A stretch of 64,000 nt of DNA from contig CM120647.1 in assembly GCA_051362555.1 (NCBI GenBank), positions 16,964,651 through 17,028,650 on the forward strand, in the 5' to 3' direction. A program made the position numbers and the translations under genes. This stretch comes from Lingula anatina (taxonomy: Eukaryota > Animalia > Brachiopoda). Of the stretch, positions 20,016-52,770 are shown piece after piece. Position 1 is the first letter of the stretch, and the number at the start of each line of letters is the position of its first letter. The notes below the pieces were generated by a model. That model searched no databases and was not told the DNA's origin. It saw nothing but the letters and a program-made list of their open reading frames with translations.

Positions 20016-20056
<41 letters not shown>

Positions 20057-21478: not shown

Positions 21479-21523
<45 letters not shown>

Positions 21524-24500: not shown

Positions 24501-25689
24501 GTAGGTAAGATGCATGGTTCGATATTAATGGTTTGCACTCGACGTAGAGCCTGGTGACTGGAACCAGTTACTGGTGTGACAGGAATGGCACTGGTAGTCC
24601 TAGGAATGGAAGTCATTAGCCCCATATTGATTAGTACAGGTTCGGGTTAGTCGAGTTAGTATATGGGACCATTGTCACCCGTACAAAGTAAAGGTGGAAC
24701 GGACTACGGTTTCTATTACCAATCCTGTCACACCGGTATCAACAGATACAGATCGAGACCAGTGGCGCAAAATAACACGCGATCTTGTGGGAACAAGTGA
24801 CTTAAATACTGCTCATATTTTATAGTGCGTCGATCAGAAAATCATTGAAAAGCAAAAGAAATCAGTCACTTAGGACCGTCTACTAACATATTTTCTCATA
24901 CTATGTATATGTAATATGCGGCAAGAATTCAAGATGGTCTTAAAACGGGTGACAATACTGATTAAATTCAATTCATCTAGTATACACGTCTTGACCTCTC
25001 TTCTCATAACCACACGATCTGGATCATCCCAGCAGGCCTGTTTTCCCCGTAACCTGAAAACGGTTATGCATATATCATTTATCACATAAGATGCCATATA
25101 AGATAATATAGTATTTTGTTGCAGATGACCCATGCTTGTTTGACCCACCCTGCTTAAATAATGGAACATGTAGTAGTATGGACGGTCAGTTCACGTGCAC
25201 CTGCACACCGTCCTTCACCGGGACTCTCTGTGAGACACGTAAGTTTAAAAAACTCAATCTATTTATATATGGGGTGCTGAATGAAACATCGAAAAATCGA
25301 ATTTTTACTCTTTGTTCAATTCTGTTACGCTAAGATCTAGATAATTGTCTTACAAAGAAGAAACCGGAAAAGGCTGTTTTAACACATTTCGTTCATTTTA
25401 ACATAAATGAGATCAACTTAAAGGACTGAAGGAGTCATTAATTAGAATTGAATGGGTGATGAAATATAGTGCAACCTTGATTAGTCACGTAATGGAGACT
25501 ACTTTAAATCTATATAGCTTTTCCAGCTTCCAATTCCAAATGCTTTTCGGTCCTTTGGACTAAAGCCAGTCGTTGATTAAAATATCATCTCTGTTTCATA
25601 TTACGGTATTTAATGTTACCTGATAATAAACAATAGGAGGTCTTTACTTTTCAATTCAATCCAATTCAATTACCACGGTATTTCTCTCG

Positions 25690-25781
<92 letters not shown>

Positions 25782-27050
25782 AAAAATGAAAACGTTTTTC
25801 CTGTACGAGTAATATTATATATAATAAAAGAAAAAGAAGAACAGCAACTTTCTTGCCCCGACCGGTTTCTTTCTTTCTTCAGGGGGTTTTGTTTATTTGT
25901 TACTAGGTGATGTCATAAAGGCTTAAATGTGACGTCTTTAACAATGAGTGTTTAATTATTACTTTTACCAATGCTTTTATCTATTCAATGTAGGTTTATA
26001 CTTATTAATGAATAGATTTTCTTTTATTTCCCTTTCTGTTTGGGTTGTTTCCCTGGTGAATTTATAAAATGGGAATACCGTAAAATCCTTATTTTTGTTC
26101 ATAGAGCATTCCCTAATGTGCCCACTCACAGACGTGCACTGATATTTAGGTTGTCTTATTTGTTGTCTGTGAACGGTCATTCTATGTCGGAGAGTGTCTC
26201 CAGTTTGGAACAGACAAAACAGATACCGAAGAACGACCTGAGGACCACCAAAGACAAAATTAAAATTAAAAAGGAAGCCATACCGTACATATCAACATAT
26301 AATCCAAAAAATCCGGAAATACATAAGGTCATAACTGGAAACTTACCTTTGGTAAAACAAGATGACAAAATGAATGAGATACTAACCGAAATGCAGATTA
26401 TAAAGAGTAAGAGACAAAGTCCATCACTAAAGCAAATTTTAACAAAAGCAAAATTTGAAAACAATTCCAGGACATATGTGGAAACCTCAACAATACGAGT
26501 ACAGAAATGTGAGGTACCCAGGTGTGGCACCTGTCCACTAATTAAAGAGGGGAGCCATATAACATTTAAAAATGGACTTACATTCAGAATCAAACACCCA
26601 TTCACCTGCACTAGCTCAAATTTAATCTATGTATTAACTTGCAGTGGATGCGGTGAGAACTATATAGGACAAACTGGAGACACTCTCCGACATAGAATGA
26701 CCGTTCACAGACAACAAATAAGACAACCTAAATATCAGTGCACGTCTGTGAGTGGGCACATTAGGGAATGCTCTATGAACAAAAATAAGGATTTTACGGT
26801 ATTCCCATTTTATAAATTCACCAGGGAAACAACCCAAACAGAAAGGGAAATAAAAGAAAATCTATTCATTAATAAGTATAAACCTACATTGAATAGATAA
26901 AAGCATTGGTAAAAGTAACAATTAAACACTCATTGTTAAAGACGTCACATTTAAGCCTTTATGACATCACCTAGTAACAAATAAACAAAACCCCCTGAAG
27001 AAAGAAAGAAACCGGTCGGGGCAAGAAAGTTGCTGTTCTTCTTTTTCTTT

Positions 27051-27095
<45 letters not shown>

Positions 27096-27413
27096 TAAAT
27101 ACCAGTGCACGTCTGTGAGTGGGCACATTAGGGAATGCTCTATGAACAAAAACAAGGATTATACGGTATTCCCATTTTATAAATTCACCAGGGAAACAAC
27201 CCAAACAGAAAGGGAAATAAAAGAAAATCTATTCATTAATAAGTATAAACCTACATTGAATAGATAAAAGCATTGGTAAAAGTAATAATTAAACACTCAT
27301 TGTTAAAGACGTCACATTCAAGCCTTTATGACATCACCTAGTAACAAATAAACAAAACCCCCTGAAGAAAGAAAGAAACCGGTCGGGGCAAGAAAGTTGC
27401 TGTTCTTCTTTTT

Positions 27414-27473
<60 letters not shown>

Positions 27474-29215
27474 CCCATTTACGCACTCATACGTCCAAAA
27501 TCGCAGCCTTGTTCGTACAAAATGCAAAAACCTGTCTGCTGTACAGTATGCTGTGAACTTTTCTAGCCACCTGTAGAACGAACGCCGATTGCAATCCCAG
27601 TGCGACAGACTGTCTCGGCGTTACGGGGATCACTTCAGACATTGCTAGTGGGGTGCTGACGGTAAGTATCTTCATAAGTGTTTATTCCGGTGTGACAGGA
27701 ATGGTAGTCCTAGGAATGGAAGGCTGGACTAACATATGATTAGTACAGGTTAGGGTTAATTGGAGTATTGAGGTTAATATATGGGACAAATGTCCCCCTG
27801 TACAAAGTAATGGGAAGCGGACTCCGGTTCCTAGCAGACTTCCATTCCTGTTACACCGAAACTAAGCACAATCGGTGTTTTCCGCCGTGGTTCATTGTAT
27901 CTTGTAAAATCACATTAACATTTGGCACTCGTAAAGTAGAAACAGCTTAACCATGACATTGTTTTAGAAAAATGTCTTATTCTGTCTATTGTTTTTCTTT
28001 TTACTTAATCCAGCCAATAGCTAGTGTGATGTGCAGTTTCAATGGTCGCAATGCCATGGATGTCAATGTGGTCCACTACTGCAATGCTGGGGCCTGTGCT
28101 GAATTCACCACAAGTGAGTTTTAAGGGGTTAATATGGTCTGTAGTAAGGTTGGTCTCTTCGTTGATATTTCTGTTAACAGGTACATGTTAATTAATGGGC
28201 ATTGGTTTTAGCTCCGCACAAGAATTCAACGGACTTTAAACGTCCCCTTGGCATTAAAGAATAAATAAGATTGAGAATTTTAGAAGTCCGTAACGAAAGT
28301 GTAATGGATAAGCATTATACGATTCGAAAATTTCACAATAAAGTTTTTGAAAACATTTGTAATGTCTGTAAAAATAACGGCAAGATCCCTTAATTTGGAA
28401 ATTGAAAGTTATTATTCATGATATGGACATAAATATCAAAACGTTTTAATTAGACCTCGTTACTTCGATTGAGTTGTGAAAAAATTTACGACCCGAGCAG
28501 ATTGAGATAATGTCTGCAGTAAGTCCACTGGCGCCACTTATCTTTCTCAATCAGCATCTGGAAATATATATTAATCTTTTTATCGCAGTTAATAAACATT
28601 TCATGCATGTTGGTCGCCACTGCAGCGTTTTAATCAGTTTCTATGATTATTAACGGACGGAATTATGTACAACTATTTTTTTTTTTTGTATTTTTTTTTT
28701 TTTTTTTGATAATGACGCCTAACTTGTAAGACGTTTCAAAATCTTAGTGGAATGCATCACGTAAGAATATAAATTGCTGTTATATTATATGATATTAAGA
28801 ATATTAGGGAATACACTCTTTATCTCATTTATCAAGAGGTAGATAAACGATAAAAAAGCGTAAAAAATCGTGTAATTAAATGTAAATTTATGAAGAAATG
28901 GGATTGAGTGGAAGTTATTTTCTCTTAGTAATTCATGACAAATGTAAACCTTCCTCGTGTAATAATTATTTTACTTTCCAGGTAATACTCTATTCTCCGA
29001 GTGCACTGTAGCGAACGCTTATAAGAATCTAAGCACAGAGACGCTATGCAGCGTGGCAGACACGGTGTCTCCAATCTGTACGTTCAATCCGTTCTTCCTC
29101 TTCTTCACGAACTCTGGATACCGTTGTATGTGCCCACTGGGGACGTACCCGTTCATATTCCCTTTCTCTTATGTTAGCAGAGCATCCACGGCGGTGTCGG
29201 CGTGTTTTCCAAGTA

Positions 29216-29256
<41 letters not shown>

Positions 29257-31339
29257 ACGTAAAACATGGATTCAGAGCAAAGGGAAATATAAAAAAGCAA
29301 ATTATTTCTAAGCTTTTATTATTATTACTATTATTATTGGTGTAAAATGCACATTTATCAAGTTATTGTGTTGCTTTCGTTGTCATCATCGCTTTTCTTT
29401 CTTATTTCTATAATGCAAGCACAATTTGACATGATGGTTGTGAACTAATCTTATGTTACATGGATATGGTATACCCTATATCTTTCTTTTGTATTTACAC
29501 CATCTTACCAAAAAAAAAAAAGTTCTGTTTAATCCAGATAGATTTTTAGTATATATATATTTAAAATTTCTGTGAAATGTTTCAGTTTCTGGTTCTCTCT
29601 GCATAACCAACGACGACTGCAACGTTAGGGCGACGGACTGTCTTGGCATTCCAACTCGTCCTAGTTTGGGCTCTCCCTCTGAATTCCTGGGAGGGATATC
29701 CTCGGACATTGCAAGTTTCCTAACGGTAAGGTCTTCTCAGCCTTTCTTTTTCAATTTATCTTTATAAATTTTTCATTTTTTTAATTTTCTCTTAATTTAG
29801 AACCGGTGTGACGAAGCAGGGCGCGTGCAACAGAGTCCACCCTCCATTTAGTTATACAGGTTAGGGTTAGCCTGATGCAAGTGGGTCAAAATCTAGGGCA
29901 AGTCTTAGATGTGCCTATTAAAGGGAACTGGCCCTTCTATCACGTACAATCACTCCCCTGTGACTCGGTGTACAATTTAGAGTTGCATATACTGGAAAAA
30001 ATATTAGCATATTTGCAAAAGCGTACCTCCAGTGGTTGATGGGTGGGTTAAAAGAGTAACATGGTTCCTTGGCACGTTTTCTAATGTTTAAAATATTTTG
30101 GAAGATATGATCGACAAGGCAAATTCCCCGCTTCGGTGGACTACCTGTATGTTGGTAGGTAAGAAAGACATACATTAACACGCAATCAAGATATTATTGT
30201 CGCAACAAGCACATCGGGTAAAGTCTGTGTCACAACTTGGCCAGTATTTCAGTATAGTCACATGAAGCAAGCGTGGATTCCCTATAACGCATATATACCG
30301 CTTTAATTAGTTTCTTATACGACTCACAAAAAAGTAGCCATGCCATTGCATAAACCAAATTAATCACTCCCTCAAAACATGAAGATAATTTCGTAATTTT
30401 GCCCATGCTCAAGGACCTTGTCTTCAGGCAAAGTCCAAGGGATACCAGCCATTATGTTTTGAAAACGTAAAGGAATTGTGAGTGACATATTTGAATGGAA
30501 ACACTTGTGTTATGTATAATCATAGCATGCATTTTGTGAACCTATGTATTGTTACATTCTATCCATCCGTTTTTCCTTGAATTTCAGTCGATAACTAATG
30601 TGATTTGCAGTTTCAATGATCGCTACACCGTTGATGTCACGCCCGTCTACTATTGCAACGCTGGCAGCTGCGTGGAATACGACACAAGTGAGTTTTAAGA
30701 TGTTATCGTGCTCTTTAATGACAGGGCCGCCGCCTTCATATTCCCATTTATATTATTTGGGCATTAGTTTAAGTTACACCTCAAAGTCAACAAAATCTGT
30801 TTTTCATTTGGTAACAAAGAGTTAAGAAGATGAGCATTAAAAGAAGCCGATAAGAGAAATGTGTTAGAAAAGCATGATATGATTTAAATACATCCCATAA
30901 CAGCCTTGGAAAACATTAGTGATATTGAGGGAATGGAAGGCGTTGACTCCACTTCTGCAGGAGCAGTATAGAAAAAGCTGCCATGATTCATTAGTGTGGA
31001 TATATAGTGGAATGCACCAAATTATTTATTTATTTATTACAGAGAGTTCCAATAGTTTATGTGTTATGGTAGTTTTATATAGATTCCTGGTACATAATCA
31101 TCACCTTCGTTCTCTCATTGTATCAAATGTCTTTTTCAATGTTTTTTTCAGGTCCTCTGGAGAACGCGCCAGTTGTGAACGGAAGTATTCTTTTCTACGA
31201 AGGTCTTGTCAGGGATTTCTTTCCGTCTTTATTCTCAACATATCCCAATGTGGTGCCAGATCCGAGTACTGGGAACCGCCTGACGTACCTCGCTCAAAAT
31301 ATCTACACGACGGTCTTTAGGAAACTGTTTCCGCCATAG
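17928..31339 (+). CDS. Secreted ~698-aa protein: signal peptide + Sib/'integrin beta-like' N-terminal domain + EGF + Cys-rich tail (B'C'ABCD). Exons 17928-17991, 18651-18709, 19286-19406, 19865-19994, 20631-20768, 21320-21455, 21855-22010, 22477-22604, 23471-23626, 24464-24504, 25125-25238, 27567-27661, 28014-28113, 28982-29212, 29586-29725, 30588-30687, 31152-31339
   Basis: All 16 introns are GT-AG with matching phases, summing to 2097 nt with no internal stop. Signal MWSLLLYLLAMTVFLLPRPGTG is followed by SHFRFGTISC. Family motifs: GCCWV, RSDTGTPNSSP, IPYADADGDTVRCRW..ECGGIC..PGATL, AIMLEDF..PLSKVPLQ, LTWTPT. EGF: DPCLFDPPCLNNGTC..FTCTCTPSFTGTLCE. The link across intron 25239-27566 is inferred from phase only. 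Confidence 0.8.
20354..20530. mobile_element. MITE with CAGGCCCGTAGCCAG TIRs; related inverted copy at 53452-53629
   Basis: caggcccgtagccag...ctggctacgggcctg. The copy at 53452-53629 shares ends and internal 'aaaaggtcc' motifs. Confidence 0.7.
23665..23880. mobile_element. Short degenerate MITE or foldback element
   Basis: 'cattcccatagatttagatcgatc' at the left and 'gatcgatctaaaatccgtgggaatg' at the right are inverted. Confidence 0.45.
25693..25780. repeat. (AC)n(TA)n compound microsatellite next to the Penelope insertion; further (TA)n at 27054-27090 and 27417-27470
   Basis: Read directly from the sequence. Confidence 0.95.
25856..25886 (-). ncRNA. Minimal type I hammerhead ribozyme motif in the inverted pLTR
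   Basis: The reverse complement reads CCCC-CTGAAGA-AAGAAA-GAAAC-CG-GTC-GGGG. Confidence 0.75.
26991..27021 (+). ncRNA. Minimal type I hammerhead ribozyme motif; predicted cleavage after GUC at 27017
   Basis: CCCC/GGGG stem I, CUGAnGA core, unpaired stem II, GAAA, palindromic ACCGGU stem III and GUC site. This matches the minimal HHRs known from Penelope-like elements. Confidence 0.8.
27358..27388 (+). ncRNA. Second sense minimal hammerhead motif; predicted cleavage after 27384
   Basis: Identical to 26991-27021. Confidence 0.8.
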
Positions 31340-31939
31340 TAAATGGCTGCGCCGATTCCTGCGTTGAGTACAAGTGCCATTGGAAATATTCCATGTCTAA
31401 AACATACAGTAGCTTATAGCGTATTATGTTTATTGAATATGTAAATAATACCGTTGTTTTTACCTCGTTCATTACAGTTAAGGTCTTATTACATGCGTTG
31501 GATGTTTCAACTTCTCTTTCTCTTAGTTTATGTCTTTTTATTCTTTTTTCTTCGTTGTCTGTGTCTTACTTGATCTTTCACAAATAATATATATCATCGG
31601 ATAGTCGAAATGTTTAATATCAGTTATCATAATCTGTTGCCTTTGATTACGTGTATAGATAACATTTAATTTTTGAGAATTCGTTGTCTACTATTTTACT
31701 ATTAACTTTACAGAAATATGATAACTAATAAAAATTGTCTCATTCAGAATGTTTGACGGATCGTATTTATGTAAATATAATGCATAGAAGAGGAATGTTG
31801 TATGCTTATTTTTAAGTATTTGTGTATTCTGGATGTTAAATAGCAGGAATGTGCATACTTATTAAACTTTTAATTTGTAGAAATAAACTGTTATATTACG
31901 CAATTATTTATTTTTGGTTCACACTGCTATGACTCGTAT

Positions 31940-32390
31940 TGTAATAACCAGCAGGTTGGTTATTCAGGTTCTTTGATTTACTTTTCACCAGTAAGACAAC
32001 TGAGACAGGCAGGTATAGTTTTCTGCTACATGGTTTATTTAAGTGTAAAGCTCAGGTATCTGTTCTCTCTCTCTCTCCATCTCTCTCTCTCACGATATGT
32101 ATCGTAATATATGTCTCTGTCTCACTACGTCCATCTACATGTTTATCTATATGGCTCTCTATATCTCTCTGTCTATCTCACCCCCCTCTGTGGCTCGGTC
32201 GCTGCTTTTATACTCTATCTTAATTTACATTTTAAATGAATTTCCATAACTAACATGCAACATGACATGTCTTTATATACATGTACATTTGGATAATTAA
32301 AGCTAAAACAAATGTGCATATCTCATTTATGCAAATTTAGAAGACTATCATTACTATTAGTGGTTCCCTACACATATCTCCCTTTTTTAC
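31940..32390 (-). mobile_element. LTR remnant with adjacent polypurine tract
   Basis: Minus strand reads PPT 'aaaaaagggagata', then TGT(GT)AGGGAACC..., TATAAAAG, AATAAA, ending ...TTACA at 31940. Confidence 0.6.
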
Positions 32391-33081
32391 CAAAAAAAAA
32401 TTAAGGAGCTTAATCTTTTTTAAACCTATTTAACCGACAACTATTTATTTACTGTAATTGATAGAATGTTAAGCCATAATACAAGGTACACATTTATGTG
32501 TAGTGAACCACAAATAGTCTTCTGAATTTGCATACATGAGATATGCATATTTGGAAGACTATCGGTACTATTCGTGGTTCACTACAGTACATGCTCCTTT
32601 ACAAGTCGCGCAGATGCTGGATTTTCAATATATATAGGTTAATCATCATAAGGAATCTTGTAATACCAATTGTCTATTATCTAGACTGGTTAACTAGGAA
32701 TAATAATGATGATGCTGATTTATTCATATATGGAGCATTACGTAATGTCAATGCCCCTCATAGTTGAGGAACTAAAATATTCAATGTACTAAGATGGTAA
32801 AATGACAAATTAAGAGTGAATTACACACATCAGAAGATGGAATTCATGCTTACCGAAGTACGAGGCGTAACGGGATATTAATGCACGACACTGCCGGACG
32901 TTCATGTATATCTTGTGGTTGATAGACTGTTATCACAACGGTAAAGACTCCTGCGAGTGCTTATTATAGCTATTACTTTCCCTCGAGCTGGGCACTGTAA
33001 TTGAATGTCTACGAATAATTTTAGATAGCATCTCTTAAATGATAGCATGACTGGTTGACCACAATTATGATGAATATATAA

Positions 33082-33870
33082 GGCTGTATTCCGAACAGTG
33101 GACTAACTACTCCGCGCCCCAGATATGTCGACCGACTAAATACCTTGCCGTGTAACCCCACACTGAGCTTCAGAGCTAACTTGACACTAACCTTTTCACT
33201 GTAGCCTATTCTCCATCGTGTCAAGTAACCTCTGACCACATTCGATTGCCCCCGCCGCCCGCCAATCAAATTTAAAGCCCGCACTCAATGACTCATTGAA
33301 CGATCTAGCCAATGAACGTGAACGAGTCAAAGCGCGCTTTGTTCAAATCCGGACCAATCAAAGATAAGGCTGAATATCAGGGACTTGCCGTAACCTGTGG
33401 GCAGCACGCAAAATACATCATCCCTCAGTAGATAATGATGCAGGGCATCAAACTGCTCTGGTTTCAATTCCGATATACTCCATGCTTTCTTTGTGTACGG
33501 TTATGCACTCGGAACTACTCGGATGTCTCCGCACTCGACAATAACTATGTTGTTAGTATGGAGCTTGCGGAATCAGCCGAGGATTGCCGATTGACGATCA
33601 ACCAATCAGCGTTTTCACCAAACTTTGGTGAAAAATTTTGAAACATGGATTCGATTGGCTTATATAAATTGGGTCAAACTATTTTCGTCAGAGGTTACTT
33701 GACACGATGGAGAATAGGCTACAGTGAAAAGGTTAGTGTCAAGTTAGCTCTGAAGCTCAGGGTGTGTAACCCGCGAATAGAGACTAAATATATTCGCCAT
33801 GGGGAAGTATTCAAGTGGGTCGGCCATATTTGACCCGTGGAATAATTAGTCCGCTGCTTTGAATGCATCC
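33082..33870. mobile_element. Harbinger-like MITE (GGCTG(C/T)ATTC ends) split by a nested element; uninterrupted relative at 62656-62836
   Basis: Left end 'ggctgtattccgaacagtggactaact' and right end 'caagtgggtcggccatatttg...tttgaatgc' match the two ends of the ~180-bp copy at 62656-62836. Confidence 0.7.
33159..33764. mobile_element. Non-autonomous DNA transposon with ~75-bp TIRs and an 8-bp TSD (hAT-like)
   Basis: TIR CAC(A/C)CTGAGCTTCAGAGCTAACTTGACACTAACC...; exact TSD TGTAACCC at 33151-33158 and 33765-33772. Confidence 0.88.
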
Positions 33871-33899
33871 TATGATAATTAGAATAATGAAGGTGTCTC

Positions 33900-34053
33900 C
33901 GATGTCTCTCCACCGATGTCTTCATTTGCATCACTTCTATAGCTAGGCCAAGTGCGGATAAATTGAGGATTCCAGCAAGTTTTCAGTTTTGTACTGCATT
34001 GTTATTTCCTAACGTTTCAAACAGCTGTGAAGTTTTCTGCCAATATACCATGG
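33900..34053 (+). promoter_or_regulatory. Shared promoter/5'UTR block ending in the ATG-G micro coding exon; homologues at ~38830-38991, ~42480-42634, ~45755-45903
   Basis: Conserved 'tcatttg', a TATA-like (G/A)ATAAATT ~95-100 nt upstream of the ATG (GAGAAATT in copy 4), and acc/aacATGG|GTGAGT donor in all four copies. Function is inferred. Confidence 0.6.
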
Positions 34054-35024
34054 GTGAGTCGCTCGTAGAGAAGCTTTTGCATGTGATGTAATATTAATTC
34101 ATATTTTCTCCATCTCACGTAGTATAAGAAAGAAGTAACGAAAACACACTACACACACACTAACATAGGTTGATTAATATTTGTCCAGTGAAGGCCGCTT
34201 GGACCAATGCCAAGCCAAAGTGAAAATCATTATGGATTTAACTTACTGAATATAAAATTAACATGTGAATCTGTAAATAATTGAGAAGAGTACTGGAATA
34301 TATCGTGACTAAAATCAATTTTATGATAATTAATTACGTATGAATGAACTTTTCGGGGTTGGAGAGGAATGGCAAATATCATAAAACCCCCCTATCAAAT
34401 TATTAATTGGCTTGTCTACTTTCCAGGCAATACCCTATTCAGTGAGTGTACTCTACCAAACGCTTACCAGAACATAACCGCGGCGCCGGAATGCACAATT
34501 GGCAGCGTCTCTACGAGTCTCGTCTGTACCTTTAACCCGCTCTTCCTGCTCTTCTCCGCCTCTGGATTCCGCTGCCTGTGCCCGCCGGGGACGTGGCCAT
34601 TCATTTATCCGAGCTTTGCTATACCTAATGCACCGCCTGCAGAGGTTGTGACAGTCTGCATCAATAGTAAGTGTCAACACTTTAATTATCATACACAGTA
34701 TCTTTATCATTTAATTTTTATTAGTTATACTATGGGACCGTTCATATGAAAAATCTATTTTCTAAAAATCTATTTTCTATTCGCGGTATCTTGTGATCAC
34801 GGTCTGTGCCCTGAATACCCCGCGGCGTAATTACTGGCAGCGCGACCCAGTTACTTCCAAAGCTGTAATTAATTCTTGGCTGCGCTTGGAGTGATCACAA
34901 GATACCGCGAATAGAAAATAGATTTTTAGAAAATAGATTTTTCATATGAACGGTCCCATAGTGTGTAAGGAAATACCTGTGGAAAACCAAAATAATTTAA
35001 ATCACGCTGTAACACCGTCCATTC

Positions 35025-35067
<43 letters not shown>

Positions 35068-36911
35068 TTTGTCGTTATTGTTGTTACTTTCATGTTATCA
35101 GGCCTACCCAACTACCAGGCTCGGCACCTAATGATCCTTAAATTCACCGATAGATCGGACCACACTACCCGTTTTCAAGGTGTGCGTCAGTACGCATTTC
35201 ACAGTTTCAGAAAATTTTATCGGAAGAAAATTTGAGATGAGGTACACTACTTTGCAAACCCGCTGAAAATCATCACTATCACAGCGCGTACTAGGCAAGA
35301 ACGGTGTCGCGTTAGAAACTGAGAAGTGCGTACTGATACATACCTTGAAAACGGGTATTGTGGTCCGATATACCGGTGAATTCAGGATCATTCGGTGTCG
35401 AATCTGGTGTTAGGTAGGCCTGGTATTTATTGTAAAATATTAATTTTTAAAGCACGACGAATGTTTGTACGTTTTAAATGAGTTAAAATCTACATTCCAA
35501 GTTGAAGGCTCTCCATGCTCAACGGACGCAGATTGCAACCTTAGAGCGACGGACTGCCTTGGCGTTGTCTCAGATTTTGTCGTCCCGGGGCTCTCGGGAC
35601 GGATTACCTCGGACATTGCAAACTTGCTGACGGTAAGAATTCGCATATCCAAAATTTCCCACTTCAATTTACTTTCACAGAAGTCTGGGAACAACGCTTG
35701 GTTTATTTTGGTCGCTCAGTCACCTCTCTCTTTAAATTTGTAAGTGGTGGTCACTTTGTCTTACTGCGCCTGTGGACAATAATTTTTCAGCCTCGAAGAT
35801 CACAAAGTGAAATTAATGTCTGTCTGAATTTTCTTGTAAAAATATAAATTTTTAAACTCTGAAATTTGTCCTGTCGGCCACAAGATACCGTGCTCTATCG
35901 TTTTAAGCAGGACCTGTCTCTTACACACAATTCAAATACATTAATTAATTAATTAATTAATTAATTAATTAATTAATTAATTGATTAATTAATATAAAAT
36001 GATATAAATTCATTTTCTGGGAAATGTCTTCCTTGCTAATTTTTCAAAGGGGTCACGGAAGATTTCAGATTTTCTCTGAAACACTCATATTTGGCTACAG
36101 TGTAATATGTTTTGGTAAGTCAACTAGCCTCGAATGGCTCGCTAAAATTTATTAAGGCCCACAACAAGGCCTATTTTAGTTACAGATTTACGATGACTAG
36201 GGAAAAATGCTGCTAAATCAGTAATTATATTAAGAAAAAAAAGGCGATGTGGATGAGTTTGTATTGGGTTTACCTGTGTTTGTTATAAACATTGCATATA
36301 ATTCTAATCTCGTGCTTTTTAAAACTTTCATTGCAGCCAATAACAAGTTTTATATGCAGCTTCAACGACCGGTTTACCGTGGACATTACGCCCAGCTACT
36401 CCTGCAACTCTAACACATGCACCGTTCTAAACACAAGTGAGTTTTAACTGGTTAACATGGTCCCTAGTGAGTTTTTTGTCGTTGATTTTTCTTTTTGATG
36501 GACACAGGGATTACATTCAGATCAACAGACGATCACTGTAATTACAGACAATATAAAAAAGATTAAAAACAACAACAACAAACAAGCAAACAAAAATGCC
36601 GTATGGAAAACAAACAATATAAGCATTACATAATTCAAAGATATCACCTTATAGTCTTAGTATCAAAGTATCAATAATCTTCGCAATATTTATAAGTCAC
36701 ATGTCTATGTCACGTGTCTTTTGCAGGTCCACCTGTCAACACGCCACTCGTGAACGGGAGTACTTTGTTCTACCAAGGCCTCGTCCGTGATTTGCTTCCA
36801 ACCATCTTCCGCACGTACTCCAATGTGGTACCAGACCCGAGCGCCGGAAACCGCCTGACGTACCTCGCTCAAAATATTTATAAGACAGTCTTTCCATCGG
36901 TGTTTCCCTAA
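34050..36911 (+). CDS. Small Cys-rich protein, copy 1 (219 aa); exons 34050-34053, 34427-34666, 35502-35632, 36337-36436, 36727-36911
   Basis: Phases 1/1/0/1 are consistent. MGNTLFSEC..CTFNPLFLLFSASGFRCLCPPG..|EGSPCSTDADCNLRATDCLG..ITSDIA|PITSFICSFNDRFTVDITP..C..C|PPVNTPLVNGSTLFYQGLVRD..FP*. Paralogous to the last four exons of the long gene. Confidence 0.85.
34729..34962. mobile_element. MITE with ~72-bp near-perfect TIRs in intron 2 of copy 1
   Basis: actatgggaccgttcatatgaaaaatctattttct...gtgatcac and its reverse complement ending ...cggtcccatagt. Confidence 0.85.
35099..35422. mobile_element. MITE, CAGG(C/T)CTACCCAACTACCAG family; second copy at 44485-44801
   Basis: Long (~90 bp) imperfect TIRs shared with 44485-44801. 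Confidence 0.8.
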
Positions 36912-38987
36912 CTGTATCTTTATCGTCGAGATTTGTTGTGCACAAATCGATTTTTATTTGTGTATGTTGAACTTTAAATGGTAAATCTTAATTGGGTAAA
37001 AAGCTGATATTTTACATGTATATATTTAAATTCCGGACTATGCAAATGCTTAGTCATTGTAGGGTATTCTGAATACCTCTGAACTTGCTTTCAAATATGA
37101 CTCGTTTGTTCTCCTGCTTCATATGACCCAGATGCATGCTTACAGGGAACTGTTTTAGAAAAACGGCAATTATTTGTCGAATTAAGGTTTGGTCCTCTCA
37201 AAAGAAGTTGATTTTGTACAAAAAAACGGCATGCAATTGGTGATATTTTGAAAGTATGATAACGACTTGTAATACATTCATGTTGTACTAAATATAGTGG
37301 GGAAACATCCATAGCATGATCCAATACAGTTTTTAAGCATAATTATACCCGCGCATCTACACATGCATGCTTCTTGTATGCCGTTTTGATGAGAATAAAG
37401 TTGCACGACCCAACTTTTCAGCAAGTCTGAATTAATGTGAACCACGGCTTGCACCTCTATGTACAAAATGTACATATTGTTTGATATGGAGCCTTTCATC
37501 GTTATATATGTGCATTTTCATAGTAGTGTAAAACAAAATAACCACAGTTTAGTTCGGCTGTTCATCTTTGTCATCTTTCCATTATTTTAGGCAAATACTA
37601 CGAACCTGAAACAGTTGTTTAGCATTTTATACCTGTGCACGCATATTTCATCTCTCTGCTGTTTATGATGAGTAAATGTATACGGTCCAAACATTCAGAA
37701 AATAACATATCCATGTTCGAAATAGATATATACATCTTAATTTACGAGGTATGTTTCATCGTTTCTTAATATTTAATAAAATTTCATATTTTGTATCTTT
37801 TTGATTAAGCGTCCTCTTTCTCATAACTCCGCCTTAAGTAAGTAGTAAATGACTATATAGTAATATAGTAAATAATAAGTAAATATTGAATTACAAACTC
37901 CATCTAACTAAATGATTGAATGAATGAATAAATGAATGAATAGATAAACAATGAAATAACACCTTTACACTAGTGCTATTTTACTTATGTGGCCCAGCTT
38001 ATATGAACGTTAAACCATTGTTATAAAACATGGATATTGAAACCGGAATGTTTACAATGCAAAATCTAGGGTTTCGCAGTAAGAACTCGAGATCTTCTCA
38101 TGAACCTGTGGCCAGAAATATCAAAATGCGCCGAACACGACTGAAAATCATCAAAAACTGCCATAAGTTACCAACCAAACTTAGTTATCAGGAAGTGACG
38201 TTCCATTTCAAAAAATGTTTTTTCCTACAGAAAAACCACATCCAGAAAAAAAAAATGATAAGAGAACGATAAGAAATTGCAAAAAAAGGAGTAATATAAG
38301 ACTTACAAAGATATATCTGCAATATTCAAAGCCTTTAATCTTTTAAAGTGAATTATGCGGATTCTGATCAACACCCATTTTGAGATACTATGAACACTAT
38401 CATCATAATTCACAATTATTACTGCAATTTTACCATATTTCCAACAGAAAAAGCTGACTCAGTGGCAATAACAGTCACCATCTTCTTGATTTGTGTTAGA
38501 TATGAAAAAAAGAACCATTACATGCACACCTTGTGCAGTTATTTTCGACCATTTTACCAAGTAAAACATGCGTTTTCGGTATGTTAATACATGACAGTGC
38601 CGGGCGTTCATGTATATCCTGTGGTTGATGAACGACGGTAATAATTCCTGAAAGTGATAAACACAACTATTTACTTTTCACTGAGCTAAGGGTGCTAACT
38701 CCGTATCTTCGAATAATTTTGGATAACATCTCTTAAACGCAGGGTAGTGCGAGAAAGATGACCGGCTGCACTTTATTATAACGATCAAGAAAAACTGTGA
38801 CAAATTTAAAAAAAATTAAATAATATAAGGACCGATGTCTCCCCTCCATATCGTCATTTGTACTGCTGTCGTACCTAGCTGGCGTGTGGATAAATTAAAG
38901 ATTCTAACAAGTTTTTCAACAAGTTGTGTACTTATTGTTACTACTGTCTTAATTAAGACTCAAAACGTTGTGGAATTCAAAGTCAAC

Positions 38988-40640
38988 ATGGGTGAGTCGC
39001 TCACAAAGAATTAGCTGAACAAAAATGGTTTAAGATATCCAGAACGAATGTGTTTAATCATATACATAAAAGTACCAGAGTTTACTCAGTTCACTTCACA
39101 CCTATATGACATAGTCGTTGCCGCCATAGTCAGTTTTATTTATTTTGGCATTTCAAATGTTGCAAACGTTCACCATTAACGAACTATTTTACTTCTTAAC
39201 TTTCCAGGCAATATTGTATTCAGCGAGTGCACTGTACCAAACGCATACCAGAATGCAAGCACGCAGATGGAGTGTATACCAGACGGGTTACTTGGCAGTA
39301 ACGCTGTGCCTCCCATCTGTACATTTAACCCGCTGTTCCTTGCCTTCACCGCCACTGGATTCCGTTGTATGTGCCCACCGGGGTCTTTTCCGTTTACCCT
39401 TCCTACCTCCGTTTTTCCTAGTCCAGTAGTGGATGCGACGTTTGTTTCCGAATGCGTCACAAGTATTTATCATTATTATTGTTATGATTTATTATACCTT
39501 GTTACAACATTCAATGATAACAAAACACATAATTGCCTTTCATGTAATTGTTATTATTATTATTATGGTCATGTTGGTGTTGTTTTAGTCCAGTTATAAT
39601 CATTATTTTGATAATTTATTTCAAATCAATATAGTTGTTTTTTGTTGTTTATACATAATGTTCTGATTTTCGTAAAAATATATATAGTTGAAGGCTCTCC
39701 ATGCACTACGGACACAGATTGCAACCTAAGGGCGACGGACTGCCTTGGCGTTGCCAGCCTTGCCAATACAGATATCCCACCGCAGTTCAACTTCGGGATT
39801 ACCTCAGACATAGCACGTTTTATCACGGTAAGCACATTCTTTTTCATATTTTTATTTATTTATTTATTATTATTTATCTGTTGTGTTCTTTTACTTTTAT
39901 ACTGAAAACATTTATCCATTTGTTACCCTGCTTCCCACAACCTATCCTGCTACAGTGTACCCTCATGTAAGCAATTGCAGAGGATAACTGCCAAAGCAGC
40001 GGCGTCTTTTGGATTTGCCTACGATGATAAAAATCATCATTCGTATTTTTCAAACTTTTGCTTTTTAAAACTTTTTATTGCAGCCAATAACAAGTCTCAT
40101 ATGCAGTTTTAACGACCGGTTCACCGTGGACATCACGCCTATCTACTACTGCAATGTTGACGAATGCGCCATTCTTAACACAAGTAAGGTTTTTTTTTTC
40201 TGGAGACCTGTAAGAGATCCACATCCAAACGATTAAGTCAGCTACGTTTATACACTCCCTTGATATTAAAGATTGACAAAAAATTTAAAGTGTGGTATGG
40301 TTGTATTCATATAATTTTTTTAATTATTATCACATTCCTCGTAGTAAGCTTCAACAGTTTATCCGCATAATGGAATCCCTACCTGTACAATCTACGACTC
40401 AGCTGTCAATACCCTGTTCAATACGTCACGTGTTGGTGTCACGTGTCTTTTGCAGGTCCACCCGTGAACACGCCACTCGTGAACGGGAGTACTTTGTTCT
40501 ACCAAGGCCTCGTCCGTGATTTGCTTCCAACCTTCTTCCGCACGTACTCCAATGTGGTACCAGACCCAAGCACCGGAGACCGCCTGACGTACCTCGCTCA
40601 AAATATTTATAAGACACTCTTTCCGTCGGTGTTTCCGTAA
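38988..40640 (+). CDS. Small Cys-rich protein, copy 2 (227 aa); exons 38988-38991, 39208-39462, 39688-39827, 40084-40183, 40456-40640
   Basis: Same exon structure and phases as copy 1. Intact frame from MGNIVFSEC to KTLFPSVFP*. Confidence 0.85.
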
Positions 40641-42630
40641 CTGCCTTTATCATCACGATTTGTTGTGCACACAAATCGGGATTGCCTGTGCGTGTTGTTA
40701 AACATTAAATGCCTTTTATCATTGTTGGAAAATAGCTGATATTTTATATATTGAATATCCGGAGTATGCAAATGCAAGCTGAGTCATATAGTGGGAAACA
40801 AACAATATGTTAAGCATCATTTTACCCGTGCGTCTGCATGCTTCTGGTATGCCGTTTAAGTTTAGATTAATGTTGCACGTTCAGCAGCCTTGGGTAAATG
40901 TGAACTGCAGGATTGCACCTTAATGTACAGAAAAAAAAAAGAAATACATCTTACTCGATATAGTGTGTTTCATCTTTATATGTGCATTTTCATAGAATTG
41001 TAAAACATAACCATCGCAATGTAGTTCGACCGCTATCTTCATCATCTCTCCATTATTTAATGTAGACACTATGAACCTGAAACGGATGTTTAGCATTATA
41101 CCTGTGTATGCGTATTCCAACTCGGCCGTTATGATAAAAGTGAATGTATACGACCCAAACTTTCAGCAAAATAGCGACTGCATGTGCGAAATAGATATAT
41201 ACATCATGGATTTACGTGGATGTTTTGTAATATTAAACATAATTTCAGATTTCTTCTCCTCTTGACTGAGCGTCCTCCTAAGTGCGTAGACACCTTACGT
41301 AAAATAACAAATATTGAATTAAAACCCCCATCTAACTAAATTATTAATAAATGAGTAAATAAATGAATAGGTAAACAATGAAATCGAACGATCAACAATG
41401 ACGCCCCTATAAAACATCAAGTATATTGAATCCAGTAATTTTACTATGTAAATTATAGGGTATCCTGGTGTGAAGGCCTGTCCTGAACCCCTGAAATTAT
41501 AAAAATGTGTAGGACTCGACTGAAAATCATGAAAACCTTTAATTACATCCTTACTAATTTCCTAGAGAGTGACGTTCTACGTGTATTTTTTAAATATTTC
41601 TCCATAAAGAATGACCACAAAAAATAAAGAAGGTAAAAACAGGCTAATTCCAAAATTCACCGCTGTTTTGGTGGTAAAATGTGATTTATTACATTTCTAG
41701 GTGTTGTTAACAATGTATATATTATAGGATTTTGAATCCCACGTGAAAAGTTGTTATCCCTTTAAATTATTTTCGTGCTTCCGTAAAGCTGTTGTGTGCA
41801 ATTGTCTTGATCTAAGTAGCAATAATCAGTCTATAGAGACCGTTAACAATACTAATGTACGTTTAGAGTCATGACCAGTCGTTCGAAACTATAACGCCCA
41901 TCTAGAAATAGCGTTATAACTATTATCATAATTCTCTATTATTATTTCAATTTTCCAGAGATGGTGTGCAATTGTCTTGGATCTAAATAGCAATAATCGG
42001 TCTATAGAGACCGTCAACGATATTTTAATACAATTCTCAATTATTATTTCAATCTCCCGAGTTTCCAAAGTTGACGCAGTATCAATAACTCTGACCAACT
42101 TTTTATTTTTGTGAAATATGAATATATGAACCATTTTATTCACACTTCGTGGAGACTCAGTATTTTTTACCAATTTACCGAAATATATCTGGCATTGATG
42201 GGACATTTTAATTTACATTAAAATGCCTGACACCGCCGGGTGTACACGTATAACTTGTGGTTGATAGACAGTTATCACAACGGTATAATGACTCCTGCAA
42301 GCGAAAATAACTGTTTTCTTTTCTCTGAACTAAGGGTGCTAATCCCATATCTTCGAATAATTTTGGATAACATCTATTAAACGCAGGCTACGGCTACGGC
42401 CAGAAAGATGACTGGCTGGACATAATCAGATAAAAAATATGAAGAATGTAAATAATATAATATAATGCAAATAAAGACTACAGTCTCCCCTCGATTTCGT
42501 CATTTGCACTGCTGCCATACCTGGGTGACGTGTGAATAAATTAAGCATTCTAGCTGGTTTTCCAGAAAGTTGTGCACTTGCTGTTATTACTGTCTTAAGT
42601 TTCAAAACGCTGTGAAATTTAAAGTCAAAC

Positions 42631-44244
42631 ATGGGTGAGTCGCTCACAGAGACATAGCTAAACTAAAATGGTTTTAGATATCTAGAATGAACGCGTTTTA
42701 TCAAATTCGTATACATTACAGAGAGAGAGGTTAGTTCATACCTATATGACGTAGTCGTTGCCTTGGTCAGTTTAATTTATTTTGCCATTGCAAATGTTGG
42801 AAACTTTCACCATTTACGAACTATTTTACTTCTTAACTTTTCAGGCAATACTGTATTCAGCGAGTGCACTCTACCAAACGCATACCAGAATGCAAGCACT
42901 CAGATGGAGTGTATGCAAGACCAGTTACTGGGCAATGACGTTGTGCCTCCTATCTGTACATTTAACCCGCTGTTCCTTGCCTTCACCGCCACTGGATTCC
43001 GTTGTATGTGCCCACCGGGGTCTTTTCCGTTCACCATTCCTACCTCCATTTTCCCTAGTTCAATAGTGGAAGCGACGTTTCTTTCCTTTTGCGTGACAAG
43101 TAATTATCATTATTATTGTTTTACTTTATTATAACTTGTTAGAAAAAGGACAACATACAGTGATTACATAGCACACATTTGCCTTTCATGTGCGTTTTAC
43201 TATTAAAACCGAATTGTTAAAATTGGTGTTGTTCTAGTTCAGCTATTACCATGATCTTGATATTTTATTTCAAAAGGAATATAACGTTTTGATTTCCTTA
43301 AAAATTCAAGTTGAAGGTTCTCCATGCACTACGGACGCAGATTGCAACCTTAGGGCGACGGACTGCCTTGGCGTTGCAAGCCTTGGCAATTTGAATATCC
43401 CACCGCAGTTCAACTTCGGGATAGTCTCTGACATCGCAAGTTTTATCACGGTAAAATAATTTCATTTTTTCAATATATATATATATATATATATTAAAAA
43501 AATAATATATCACGTGTATACCATGGCACGTGTATACTATTATTTATCGTTTGTGCTTCACTTTTATTCTGAAAAGGTTTATCCATCTGGTATGCGGTTC
43601 CCACATTCTATCCTGCTACCATCTTTTAAGCAGTCCCAGAGGATAATTGCTAAAGCAGCGGTAATAATAACCATCGTTTGTATCTTTACTTCAGCCAATA
43701 ACAAGTCTCATATGCAGTTTTAACGACCGGTTCACCGTGGACATTACGCCTATCTACTACTGCAATGTTAACGAATGCGCAGTTCTTAACACAAGTAAGT
43801 TTCAACGAGTAAACATGGTCGCTTAGTGTTCATACACGGGTATGAGATCCATACTGAAACGATAAAGAAACGATTTATACCCTCCCTTGGTATTAAAGAT
43901 TGAGAAAAAATTAAAAAATACGATCATTGTCATATTCCACATAGTAAGCGTCAACAGTTAAATAATCTGCATAAAGGAATCCCTAGCATTACAATGTACG
44001 ACTCAGCTGTGGATACTCTGTTCAAAACGTCACGTGGTGATGTCACTTGTCTTTTGCAGGTCCACCTGTGAACACGCCACTCGTGAACGGGAGTACTTTG
44101 TTCTACCAAGGCCTCGTCCGGGATTTGCTTCCAACCTTCTTCCGCACGTACTCCAATGTGGTACCAGACCCAAGCACCGGAGACCGCCTGACGTACCTCG
44201 CTCAAAATATTTATAAGACACTCTTTCCATCGGTGTTTCCGTAA
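42631..44244 (+). CDS. Small Cys-rich protein, copy 3 (227 aa); exons 42631-42634, 42845-43099, 43311-43450, 43695-43794, 44060-44244
   Basis: Same structure, starting MGNTVFSEC. An in-frame TGA at 42613 upstream supports the ATG. Confidence 0.85.
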
Positions 44245-44319
44245 CTGCCTTTATCAACACTATTTGTTGCACATAAATCGGGATTGTCTGTACGCGTTGT
44301 TGAACATTGAAATACTGTT

Positions 44320-44972
44320 TATAATGCTGTTTCAGGTTCATAGGGTCCACATTAAATAATGGAATGATGATGAAGACGGTCGGTTGAACTAAATTGTAAT
44401 GATTATGATTTACAATTGTATGAAAATGCACATATAACGATGAAACGCATCATATCGAGTAAGATGTATTTCTTTTTTTTTTTCCAGGTCTACCCAACTA
44501 CCAGACTCGGCACCGAATGGTCCCGAATTCACCGGTAGATCAGACCACACTACCCGGTTTCAAGGTGTGTATCAGAACGAATTTTACAGTATCAGACTCG
44601 ACACCACTCTTGCCTAGTACGCGATGTGATAGTGACGATTCTCAGCGGGGTTGAACAGCATTGCATCACCACTCAAAATTTGTTCAGGGTATGATACTGT
44701 GTAGTGCGTACTGACTCACACCTTGAAAACGGGTAGTGTGGTCTGATCTACCGTTGAATTCGGGACCATTCGGTACCGAGTCTGGTAGTTGGGTAGACCT
44801 GGAAAAAAAAGAAATACATCTTACTCGATATGATGCGTTTCATCGTTATATGTGCATTTTCATACAATTGTAAATCATAATCATTACAATTTAGTTCAAC
44901 CGACCGTCTTCATCATCATTCCATTATTTAATGTGGACCCTATGAACCTGAAACAGTTTTTTTAGCATTATA
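44320..44972. repeat. ~650-bp palindrome: a MITE (44485-44801) flanked by an inverted duplication of host sequence
   Basis: 44326-44484 is the near-perfect reverse complement of 44802-44956. Confidence 0.9.
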
Positions 44973-45899
44973 CCTGTGCATGCGTATTTCAACTCTGCCC
45001 TTTATGTTAAAAGTGAATGTGTACGGCCCAAACATTTAGCAAAATAACAACTCCATGTACGGAATAGATATACACATCTTGATTTACGTTTTGTGATATT
45101 TAATATAATTTCGTCTCTTCTTGACTGAGTGTCCTCTTATTCATCTCTCAGACGCCTTACGTAATGTAAAAAAAAAATATGGAATTACAAACCCCATCTA
45201 ACTAAATTATTAAGGAATGAGTAAAAATGAATAAGAAAACAATAAAGCAAACATCTTTTTCTTGCCCTTGATCTACTATTTGTGTTCTTGTCATATTGCA
45301 GTAATACGACACAACCTACAAGAACGTTTAACAATGAAACCACTATAAAACATCATGGATATTGAAACCTGTAATTTCACTATGCAAAGTATAGGGTTTC
45401 CCAGGCACACGTCGTGTAGACTCAGTTATTTTGGATCATTTTACCGAAATACATCAGGCGTTACAGGATACTAATGCACGACGCTGGGGGGGGGGGGGGG
45501 GGGGGGGAAGGGGGGGGGCAACACGTGTAAATTGTAGTTGATACACAGTTATCACAACGGTAAAGACTCCTACTAGTGATAATAACATATATTTTCTTAT
45601 CTCTGAAGTAAGGGTACTTATTTCCTGTCTTTGAATATTTGGATAATATCTCTTAAACGCAGCCTACGACCAGGAAGATGTCTGGCCTGACTTAAAATTA
45701 ACGATCAAGATTAAAAAAATGAAGAATGTAAAAATACATTGATATAAAGACTGATATCTCCCCTCAATACCGTCATTTGTACTGCTGGGATATCTAGGTG
45801 ACGCGTGGAGAAATTAAGGATTCCAGCAAGTTTTCCAAGTTGTACACTTACTATTATTACTGTCTTTAGTTTCAAAACGTTGTGAAATTTAAAGTCAAC

Positions 45900-47005
45900 A
45901 TGGGTGAGTCATCACAGAGAATAAGCTGAACAAAAATGATTTTAGATATCTAGAATGATTGCGTTTGATATATGTATATATATACTCATATGACTTAGTC
46001 TTTGTCAACAGTTTTCGATTACATTAAATTTGTTATGGGAAATATTGTAAACTTTCACCATTAAATAATGATTAAAGTTCTGCACTTTCCAGGCAACACT
46101 CTATTCGCCGAGTGCAGTCTACCAAACGCGTATCAGAATACAAACACGACGACGGAATGCACAACGCTTAGTGTCGGCAGCTTGACGAGTCCCGTCTGCA
46201 CCTTTAACCCGCTCTTCCTTGCCTTCACCGTCTCTGGATTCCGCTGCCTGTGCCCAGCGGGGTCGTCTCCCATTCCCTTTTCTCCTCAATTAGGAGTGGC
46301 GGTTCCTTTCGTCTGCTCGAGAAGTAATTGTTATTGCTTCATTTTGTTATATCTTACTATAAAGGAAAACATTGCAAAGCACATACCCGACTTTCGTGTA
46401 ATTGTTATTATTATTATTATAACTGTATTGTTATAGTTGGTGCTGTTTTAGTTCAGTTATCGGGATTATTTTGATCGTTTGTTTTAAAATAATATGGTCA
46501 ATAGTTTTTGTTCATTCATAATGTTCTGATTTTCGTTAAAAAATCTAGTTGAAGGTTCTTCATGCACAACGGACGCAGATTGCAACATAAAAGCGACGGA
46601 CTGCCTTGGCTTTGCAAGTCTGGGCAATTTGAGGATAACCTCGGACATCGCTAATTTGATCACGGTAAAAACATTATTTATTTATTACCATTTATCTTTT
46701 TGTGTTCTTTCACTTTTTTTTTTCTGAAAACGTTTATCCATTTGATATGTTGTTCCCATATGTTGTATCTTGCTACCATCTTTTAAGTAACTGCAGACTA
46801 TAACTGCTAAAGCAGCGGTGTCTATGTTAATAATAACAATCGTAGGTATTTTTTACTTCAGCCAATAACAAGTCTTATATGCAGCTTTAACGACCGGTTC
46901 ACCGTGGACATTACGCCCATCTACTTCTGCAACGTCAACCAGTGTGACATTCTTAACACAAGTGAGTTTTAAGGAGTTAGCATAGTGCATTTGGTCGTTT
47001 TTTTA

Positions 47006-47037
<32 letters not shown>

Positions 47038-47541
47038 TTTGTACGGGATACTGGTAAAAGACCCAGATCCAAAAAATTAAGTCAGCTACGTTCACACACT
47101 CACTTGGTTTAAGAGATCAAGCACGATTGACGAAATTAAAAAAAAAATGTGGTATGGATATATATAACATAATTCAAAGATGCACTGCTTGGGGATGTAT
47201 CAATATTATTTTTATTTTTAATAATATCATCAGAATCATTAGAGAAATAATAAATTTGTATAATGGTGTAACAGAATCTCTAGCTGCAACTTCTACGCCT
47301 CAGCTGTCGATACTCTGTAATATACGTCACATGTTAATGTCACTTGTCTTTTGCAGGTCCACCTGTGAACACGCCACTCGTGAACGGGAGTACTTTGTTC
47401 TACCAAGGCCTCGTCCGTGATTTGCTTCCAACCTTCTTCCGCACGTACTCCAATGTGGTACCAGACCCAAGCACCGGAGACCGCCTGACGTACCTCGCTC
47501 AAAATATTTATAAGACACTCTTTCCATCGGTGTTTCCGTAA
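45900..47541 (+). CDS. Small Cys-rich protein, copy 4 (211 aa); exons 45900-45903, 46093-46323, 46549-46664, 46862-46961, 47357-47541
   Basis: Same structure, starting MGNTLFAEC, with in-frame shorter loops in exons A and B. In-frame TAG at 45867 upstream of the ATG. Confidence 0.85.
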
Positions 47542-50923: not shown

Positions 50924-50979
<56 letters not shown>

Positions 50980-52117: not shown

Positions 52118-52192
<75 letters not shown>

Positions 52193-52770
52193 ATGAATGA
52201 ATAAATATATTGCTCTAAGAAAGCGGTGGTAGAATCATCACTGTACCTTAGGTGCTTTGGCAAAGTAAACTTGTTTCTGATATCGGCTCGTTTCATTCCT
52301 GAATGGTAGCAGTCAATGGTCAGCACCAAAGCCCTGTAGCCACTCTGCTCAGCCCTACGTATAAGATCCTCCGTCTGTTTTTGGTTTTTAAAAACGTAGA
52401 GCTGAAACCAGCGCAGGCCATCTGGTGTGGCGTCGGCGACCGCTTCCATTGTGGAGGTAGCATATGTACTGAGGATCATGCAAGAACGCACTGACGCTGC
52501 AGCTAAAATATATTTTGGTACATGTAAACAAATAAATAAATACATGCATTTTTCATATGCGTGATGGTAATCGCTTTCCTTTGGAGATATCAAACGAATG
52601 ATACAATTCTAGCTTTTTGAATTCTAAGTTTAAATTCTAAACCTTCGCGGTTTAAAAAGAATCTTAGCATGTGGTCGGACAATGAAATCGCACTTAAATT
52701 TATATAAATCAGCGGCAGCAAACCACAAAAATCTACATCGTTTATAAAGCCTGCATAATAAACGGGTCAC

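Follow-up and report, generated by a model that had tools for sequence, protein, structure and literature searches.

Here we describe a tandem array of genes for a cysteine-rich module in Lingula anatina, contained in a 64,000-nucleotide stretch of contig CM120647.1 (GenBank assembly GCA_051362555.1, positions 16,964,651 to 17,028,650), hereafter the window. Five intact sets of four exons, A, B, C and D, lie in tandem together with an extra pair, B0-C0. Splicing the models from the window gave GT-AG borders at every intron of the five genes (g1 to g5), intron phases common to the copies (1-A-1, 1-B-0 and 0-C-1), an exon C of exactly 100 nt in all six copies and 12 cysteines in each of the five modules, six of them in A, six in B+C and none in D; the B0-C0 pair has six. 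The first set is the tail of g1, whose 17 coding exons (17928-31339) encode a protein of 698 aa with a single terminal stop, and the other four are free-standing genes, each starting at one of the only four occurrences in the window of the motif [AC][AC]ATGGGT[AG]AG. The initial annotation had proposed these exon starts, open frames, splice sites, phases, cysteine counts and ATG-G micro-exons, all of which were correct on re-splicing, and its fused protein is matched in length by two RefSeq proteins, XP_013391853.1 and XP_013390725.1, which differ from g1 of the window at 22 and 16 positions, respectively, without gaps; the RefSeq models are predictions, made independently of that annotation. 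We consider it on balance probable that the locus is a Lingula 12-Cys array in whose first copy eleven secreted Ig/EGF exons were inserted between the family promoter and the Cys exons.

The array has a fifth promoter. Some 450 nt 5′ of the ATG exons of g2-g5 are mutually homologous, and a profile of these regions found one further match in the window, of 41.1 bits, the next match having an E-value of 0.1; the reversed window gave 4.1 bits, 15 locally shuffled windows gave at most 7.9 bits, and pairwise alignments gave z-scores of 7.7-8.8. The block GAATAATTTT.GATA.CATC is preserved in this copy, as is a donor GT (position 16070) that keeps register with the donors of g2-g5, but the ATG is lost, the sequence AACATGG/GTGAGTC of g2-g5 (slash, exon border) having become GACAAAG/GTAAGTC. 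The signal-exon acceptor (17911) lies 1.84 kb downstream. There are thus five promoters for five D exons, with the secreted block between the first promoter and its Cys exons, and the exon of this copy likely became the 5′ untranslated region (UTR) of g1, spliced to 17911, as far as can be judged from its sequence. The exon sets of the initial annotation therefore stand, whereas its limits of the unit do not, since the promoter and first exon extend it upstream to 15768. A dispersed repeat is present at 2-1000 and 14741-15590 (72-84% alike), and the promoter homology begins shortly 3′ of its second copy.

Features of the array and of the secreted block, with positions in the window
Feature	Position	Strand	Basis or remarks
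Fifth family promoter and first exon, ATG replaced	15768..16084	+	nhmmer E 1.4e-12, controls, alignments
Probable signal-peptide exon	17911..17991 (acceptor AG 17910, ATG 17928)	+	Encodes MWSLLLYLLAMTVFLLPRPGT; ends in phase 1; judged by eye
Secreted block, nine exons, residues 22-376	18651..24504	+	Weak Ig_SIBA-E_3rd similarity near residues 300-351
Single EGF exon, phase 1-1	25125..25238	+	PF00008 E 9e-7, above cut-off
Young GIY-YIG element fragment, intron EGF-B0 (presumably Penelope-like)	25738..27470		PF01541 E 8e-6; near-identical inverted and direct copies, 98-99.5%
B0-C0, extra 6-Cys unit	27567..28113 (B0 27567-27661, C0 28014-28113)	+	In frame with g1
Intron C0-A1	28114..28981	+	5′ end like post-C introns, 3′ end like pre-A introns
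g1 module	28982..31339 (A1 28982-29212, B1 29586-29725, C1 30588-30687, D1 31152-31339)	+	Spliced model; RefSeq XP_013391853.1, XP_013390725.1
g2 promoter and first exon	32855..34073	+	Profile matches 32855-33078 and 33875-34073; inverted-repeat insertion of ~790 nt between
g2, 219 aa	34050..36911 (ATG-G 34050-34053, A 34427-34666, B 35502-35632, C 36337-36436, D 36727-36911)	+	Spliced model; trace RNA depth
g3, 227 aa	38988..40640 (ATG-G 38988-38991, A 39208-39462, B 39688-39827, C 40084-40183, D 40456-40640)	+	Promoter from ~38562
g4, 227 aa	42631..44244 (ATG-G 42631-42634, A 42845-43099, B 43311-43450, C 43695-43794, D 44060-44244)	+	Promoter from ~42201
g5, 211 aa	45900..47541 (ATG-G 45900-45903, A 46093-46323, B 46549-46664, C 46862-46961, D 47357-47541)	+	Promoter from ~45455

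The N-terminus of g1 is likely a signal peptide, and the fused protein has one EGF domain only (residues 380-416). The initial annotation had called it a secreted Sib-like/EGF protein, of which the EGF part holds. The Dictyostelium SIB adhesion proteins (SibA-E) are defined by a VWA domain, a membrane segment and an NPXY tail (PMC9453864). The predicted signal peptide and a weak match to one Pfam family, Ig_SIBA-E_3rd (PF24910; E 8e-4 and E 0.0017, 19-20 bits, below the cut-off of 27), are what g1 may have in common with them; in contrast, no VWA family was found in Pfam scans of the fused protein P0001 or of its N-terminal 357 aa, g1 has no transmembrane segment (top 19-residue hydropathy 1.53, at residue 119), and its C-terminus is module D with no cytosolic NPXY tail. 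We therefore rejected membership of the Sib family and retain the label as a lead only. The RefSeq name of XP_013391853.1, “neurogenic locus Notch protein”, was likewise rejected: Notch proteins carry many EGF repeats as well as LNR, transmembrane and ankyrin domains, and the name of P0001 derives from its single EGF domain. Interleaved direct repeats occupy 17322-18194, where a 157-nt segment (83% alike) occurs on both sides of the signal-peptide exon, 558 nt apart, possibly as the footprint of a rearrangement.

Within the databases searched, the family appears to be restricted to Lingula, its copy number beyond the window resting on RefSeq proteins. An exon-D profile picked out three of 207 candidate proteins, each a RefSeq model from Lingula anatina; a full-length module profile gave seven matches among 3504 candidates, all from Lingula; and an exon-A profile run against 1.84 billion representatives gave five, with no fused form outside Lingula. 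Four of these five are from Lingula, and the fifth, a repeat-rich ENA protein (P0011, E 5e-4), was dropped as unrelated. The 17 database proteins retrieved comprise 13 free members in about six lineages, three fused proteins and one unrelated protein; the free members lie at other loci, fall to 33-39% identity and have no signal peptide. Scans of Pfam, NCBIfam and PDB sequences returned nothing significant for the module, a word search with exon A3 found no longer protein among 48 candidates, and the family was absent from 286 metagenome stretches, 41 prokaryote genomes and the plasmids searched. An Atlas search gave a first match of 0.83 for exon A, which is a lead only, and nothing usable for P0003. 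No full-length match to a characterised family was found, in keeping with the family having gone unrecognised in the initial annotation, and the literature searched by topic and by accession or locus id holds no description of it, although paywalled papers and supplements may add to this. Among the novel shell matrix proteins of Lingula, which resemble the family in being lineage-restricted, tandem and from the same animal, the 14 in Supplementary Table 26 have pI 4.9-10.3 and none combines 200-230 aa with pI 4.1-4.5; this table and the available part of Table 25 gave no length or pI match, in a comparison made without gene-id mapping against a set that favours signal-peptide proteins (PMC4595640). 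The two “isoforms” of RefSeq LOC106175117 (P0010 and P0014) differ over their entire length and probably represent two family genes in tandem that were combined into a single locus.

Phylogeny points to the free gene as the older form. Midpoint-rooted trees of 15 and of 12 rows join the fused tail to the free protein P0003 as its sister (support 89/88 and 92/89) and place the free protein P0005 outside the group of g1, P0003 and g2-g5 (96/97 and 95/96); the more distant members are all free, and one change of state suffices. The second residue is G, A or V in 11 of the 13 free RefSeq records, as expected from an ATG-G exon, and isoform P0002 begins MVTG, its first exon being joined to B with A skipped, which together make it likely that the ATG-G exon is older than the fusion. 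Taken with the promoter copy, the tree suggests that the free gene is likely ancestral and that one copy probably received the secreted Ig/EGF block by insertion. The initial annotation had offered two histories. The first, in which the 3′ end of a large extracellular protein was duplicated and gained a promoter, is disfavoured because the free genes at other loci branch deeper than the fused tail and have first codons that fit the ATG-G exon, and because g1 bears a decayed copy of the small-gene promoter and first exon; the second, capture of a small gene by the Sib-like gene, had the direction right but not the arrangement, since the anatomy suggests that the secreted block sits inside the family gene and not merely upstream of it.

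The introns of g1 suggest how the insertion may have come about. The start of intron C0-A1 resembles post-C introns (E 0.0057) and its end pre-A introns (E 0.026), each being the best match outside the training set, and C0 is closest to C1 (72/100 nt, vs 56-63 for g2-g5), with no resolution in a tree of B+C. The chimeric intron and the closeness of C0 to C1 fit a duplication of A-B-C at phase-1 introns in which the first A was replaced by the secreted block. A profile search of the g1 introns for relics of D0, A0 or a promoter gave nothing significant. A second, partial fused paralog is 81% identical in the secreted block and likewise in C0-A1, indicating that the fusion predates further duplication and that the young GIY-YIG element is unlikely to be its cause. 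Exon A, B+C and the EGF exon are each bordered by phase-1 introns (class 1-1), and sets of class 1-1 exons are as a rule inserted into introns of phase 1, with read-through fusion as the alternative (PMC3927616).

It thus seems to us fairly likely, with doubt about the use of the old promoter included in that judgement, that the free gene came first and that the secreted block was put behind its promoter, and the module likely gained its export route by exon shuffling. From an ancestral state of free ATG-G/A/B/C/D genes, A-B-C would have been duplicated in one copy by recombination between phase-1 introns; the secreted block, inserted in a phase-1 intron, would have replaced the first A and brought a signal peptide with it; the first exon of the host would have lost its ATG and probably turned into 5′ UTR; and g2-g5 would have expanded as free genes.

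All 12 members compared share fixed cysteine spacings (15,1 in A; 7 across the A-B border; 5,6 in B; 15 in C), and three loops of the module vary, by up to 12 residues. The best conserved stretch outside the cysteines is the hydrophobic PxFLxFTxS, which a low-confidence model (pLDDT 51) draws as a short helix between two strands, and exon D encodes amphipathic segments. Structure models reached pLDDT 31 from a single sequence and 51 from 25 rows; the structure prediction and Foldseek comparison that the initial annotation had suggested matched no known fold (best E 3.4 by Foldseek; best Z 2.4 by VIA, which mostly probed the tail), the query being the pLDDT-51 model, from which novelty of fold cannot be inferred. 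Unit A resembles an EGF-like domain in its six cysteines with C-x-C at positions 4-5 in 12/12 members and its F-R-C-x-C-P-x-G end, hEGF scoring a best E of 0.044 in 4/25 rows and EGF clusters standing among the Atlas leads (0.75-0.79); it differs in its loops of 13-17, 15 and 15-27 residues, and its profile scores no better against the true EGF exon than shuffles do (10/60 reach the score). Unit B+C has the spacing 5,6,26-35,15,4-10 and gave only weak knottin/EB-type rows (E 0.19-2.5). A and B+C were considered as an internal repeat, both having C-x-F-N and a 15-residue spacing, and this was rejected because hhalign scores lie within those of shuffles.

From these features we propose, tentatively and with less than even confidence, that the protein binds its targets outside the cell or on surfaces, stapled by disulfides, variable in its front loops and anchored by a constant tail. 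Each module would be built of two 6-Cys units around the invariant loop PxFLxFTxS, the variable A/B loops would determine the target, and the constant amphipathic tail D would attach to a membrane or partner common to all copies. In g1 this module would be presented on a scaffold that takes the conventional secretory route, regulated in the same way as the free genes. Against this stands the possibility that the free proteins stay inside the cell, have a lipidated or acetylated N-terminus and use their cysteines for metal binding or acylation, the secreted fusion being a side branch. The free proteins lack a signal peptide (neither a hydrophobic stretch at the N-terminus nor a conserved frame upstream was found, and an in-frame upstream signal peptide was rejected for g2-g5, with stops or no ATG in 3/4), their sequons are not enriched, their D helices are amphipathic, and g2-g5, P0003, P0005 and P0009 start with MGN, which we take to be a myristoylation motif. 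However, P0008, P0010, P0014 and P0015 start with MA, so Gly2 is not universal; all 12 cysteines are retained in the predicted secreted fusion; and the free proteins (~220 aa, pI 4.1-4.5, 0-2 K and 0-1 H) have next to no histidine and a composition unlike their neighbours (K 0.5% vs 4.6-5.6%). We regard an intracellular role as unlikely, though it is the chief competing reading of the function.

The promoter copy bears on a further alternative, in which an independent secreted gene landed between a dead family promoter and the array and, from a promoter of its own, splices into the downstream family exons. The 15768-16084 exon has two upstream ATGs, one of them weak in context and overlapping the main start in a different frame, and the copy contains a diverged TATA-like stretch; local duplications flank the signal exon, and read-through is a known route to fusion (PMC3927616). 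Yet the copy keeps its in-register donor and a 30-nt conserved block, despite a dS of ~1 between g1 and g2-g5 and the absence of a profile match in most g1 introns, and this makes read-through distinctly improbable in our estimation. We give still less weight to fission, in which a long secreted gene with a 5′ UTR exon was ancestral and the free genes arose from copies that lost the internal exons and gained an ATG in the UTR exon. It would account for the shared promoter and for cysteines of extracellular type, and neither the unfixed root nor the approximately unbiased (AU) test of a g1 + g2-g5 clade (p 0.07) rejects it; but none of the six free lineages at other loci, whose identity falls to 33-39%, has the secreted block, a root placed there on the fused lineage requires ~1.5 changes per column for the free genes vs 0.3-0.4 for the fused one, and the exon-A search found no fused form outside Lingula.

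The copies are under purifying selection, as the initial annotation had supposed. Over A-D, dN/dS (Nei-Gojobori) is 0.24-0.54 in all ten pairs, with upper bootstrap bounds of 0.36-0.89 and intervals below 1 throughout; it is 0.24-0.31 for g1 vs g2-g5 (dS ~1) and 0.43-0.54 among g2-g5. Exon D among g2-g5 is 95-99% identical in DNA, vs 66-73% for A, in 5/6 pairs, and its synonymous differences are far fewer than those of A-C in 5/6 pairs (Fisher p 3e-4 to 1e-6; g3-g4 not significant). The tract of identity stops at the exon borders, and the A/B loops vary among g2-g5. Gene conversion likely homogenised exon D, to judge from these sequences, with synonymous constraint as an alternative cause. That g2-g5 are recent, largely silent duplicates held intact by gene conversion and not by function would suit the trace RNA, their absence from databases, the conversion of D and the insertion in the g2 promoter, and is nonetheless very improbable, since at a synonymous divergence of 0.3-0.45 the frames are open, indels are in-frame only, all cysteines and splice sites are kept, and dN/dS intervals lie below 1 in 6/6 pairs of g2-g5.

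RNA mapping covered 32500-36520 (the g2 region) in four of nine listed runs, with 6-25% of each. Nearly all mapped reads fell on transposon-like inserts, and the g2 exons had trace depth, about two reads, in 2/4 runs, with the first mate on the minus strand only. In run X3 the bin means of 45, 136 and 121.5 letters correspond arithmetically to one pair whose read covers 45 nt of the first exon and 106 nt of A; this read would join the first exon of g2 to A and falls below the three-read limit. Reads on exon B may derive from paralogs. With such trace depth and no exon joint in the interval, expression is not established; g2 is near silent in the sampled runs or tissue-restricted. The insertion in the g2 promoter (33100-33850) has inverted arms at 33159-33252 and 33671-33764, and further inverted-repeat insertions lie near g2 exons at 34738-34953 and 35096-35425. 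These insertions draw heavy RNA depth from other loci, and the 33100-33850 copy is transcribed strand-specifically in run X4.

Several points weigh against the history and function proposed here. The tree root is a midpoint, and a g1 + g2-g5 clade is not rejected at p 0.07; the splice from 16070 to 17911 is a prediction from sequence, and the upstream ATGs could mean that the 15768-16084 exon is a dead relic. Free proteins without a signal peptide leave disulfide formation unexplained, N-glycosylation sequons are not enriched (27 observed vs 32.7 expected), the roles given to loop and helix are guesses at a pLDDT of 51, and dN/dS of exon A never exceeds 1 (highest 0.85). Finally, g2 is almost silent in the four runs, and g2-g5 have no counterpart among the 17 database proteins.

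Other coding sequence lies around the array. A single open frame of 1091 aa, rich in TPR_12/TPR_10 repeats, occupies 3597-6872 (+), and a gene with a fibrinogen C-terminal domain (PF00147 E 1e-40) has its 3′ exons at 11717-12718 (+), ending 3 kb before the family promoter copy; these two neighbours are hints of defence and prove nothing. An FMN-dependent dehydrogenase gene (PF01070 E 1e-23, one exon) faces the array at 49500-54200 (-). Exons at 58184-63669 (+) have translations resembling a sodium:solute symporter. No Rfam family was found within 13000-49000 of the window.

The proposed insertion of a secreted block behind a family promoter is of a known kind. As with the class 1-1 shuffled modules (EGF, kringle, FN, TSP1), phase-1 introns surround A, B+C and the EGF exon, splicing can omit A (P0002), and duplication and insertion go by phase 1 (PMC3927616); the difference is that here the module family is the recipient, has no signal peptide, and receives a block that supplies both the signal peptide and a new start codon and puts the ATG of the host out of use. 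Clustered protocadherins and UGT1 likewise join a divergent N-terminal part to a uniform C-terminal one under concerted evolution; here no single constant exon is shared, each gene having a D exon to itself, and gene conversion has likely kept these exons alike. The family itself, the reversed relation of host and guest, and the leaderless yet Cys-rich state are not described in the literature searched. A bolder reading, to which we assign a low probability, sees a brachiopod-specific recognition family with a new disulfide fold and a leaderless exit, diversified in its front loops and converted in its tail, which was once plugged into the secretory route by taking a secreted gene behind its own promoter.

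The gain of a signal peptide by an orphan protein is unusually legible at this locus, as a span of 32 kb contains the promoter of the host gene, its dead ATG exon, the chimeric intron and sister genes that remain unmodified. The analysis defines an unnamed Cys module family, corrects a “Notch” annotation and adds four genes that were missing from the protein databases searched. The locus also makes it possible to test directly whether the same 12-Cys module can fold in a protein that enters the endoplasmic reticulum as well as in one that does not. If the bolder reading were true, a single locus would hold both export routes for the same module.

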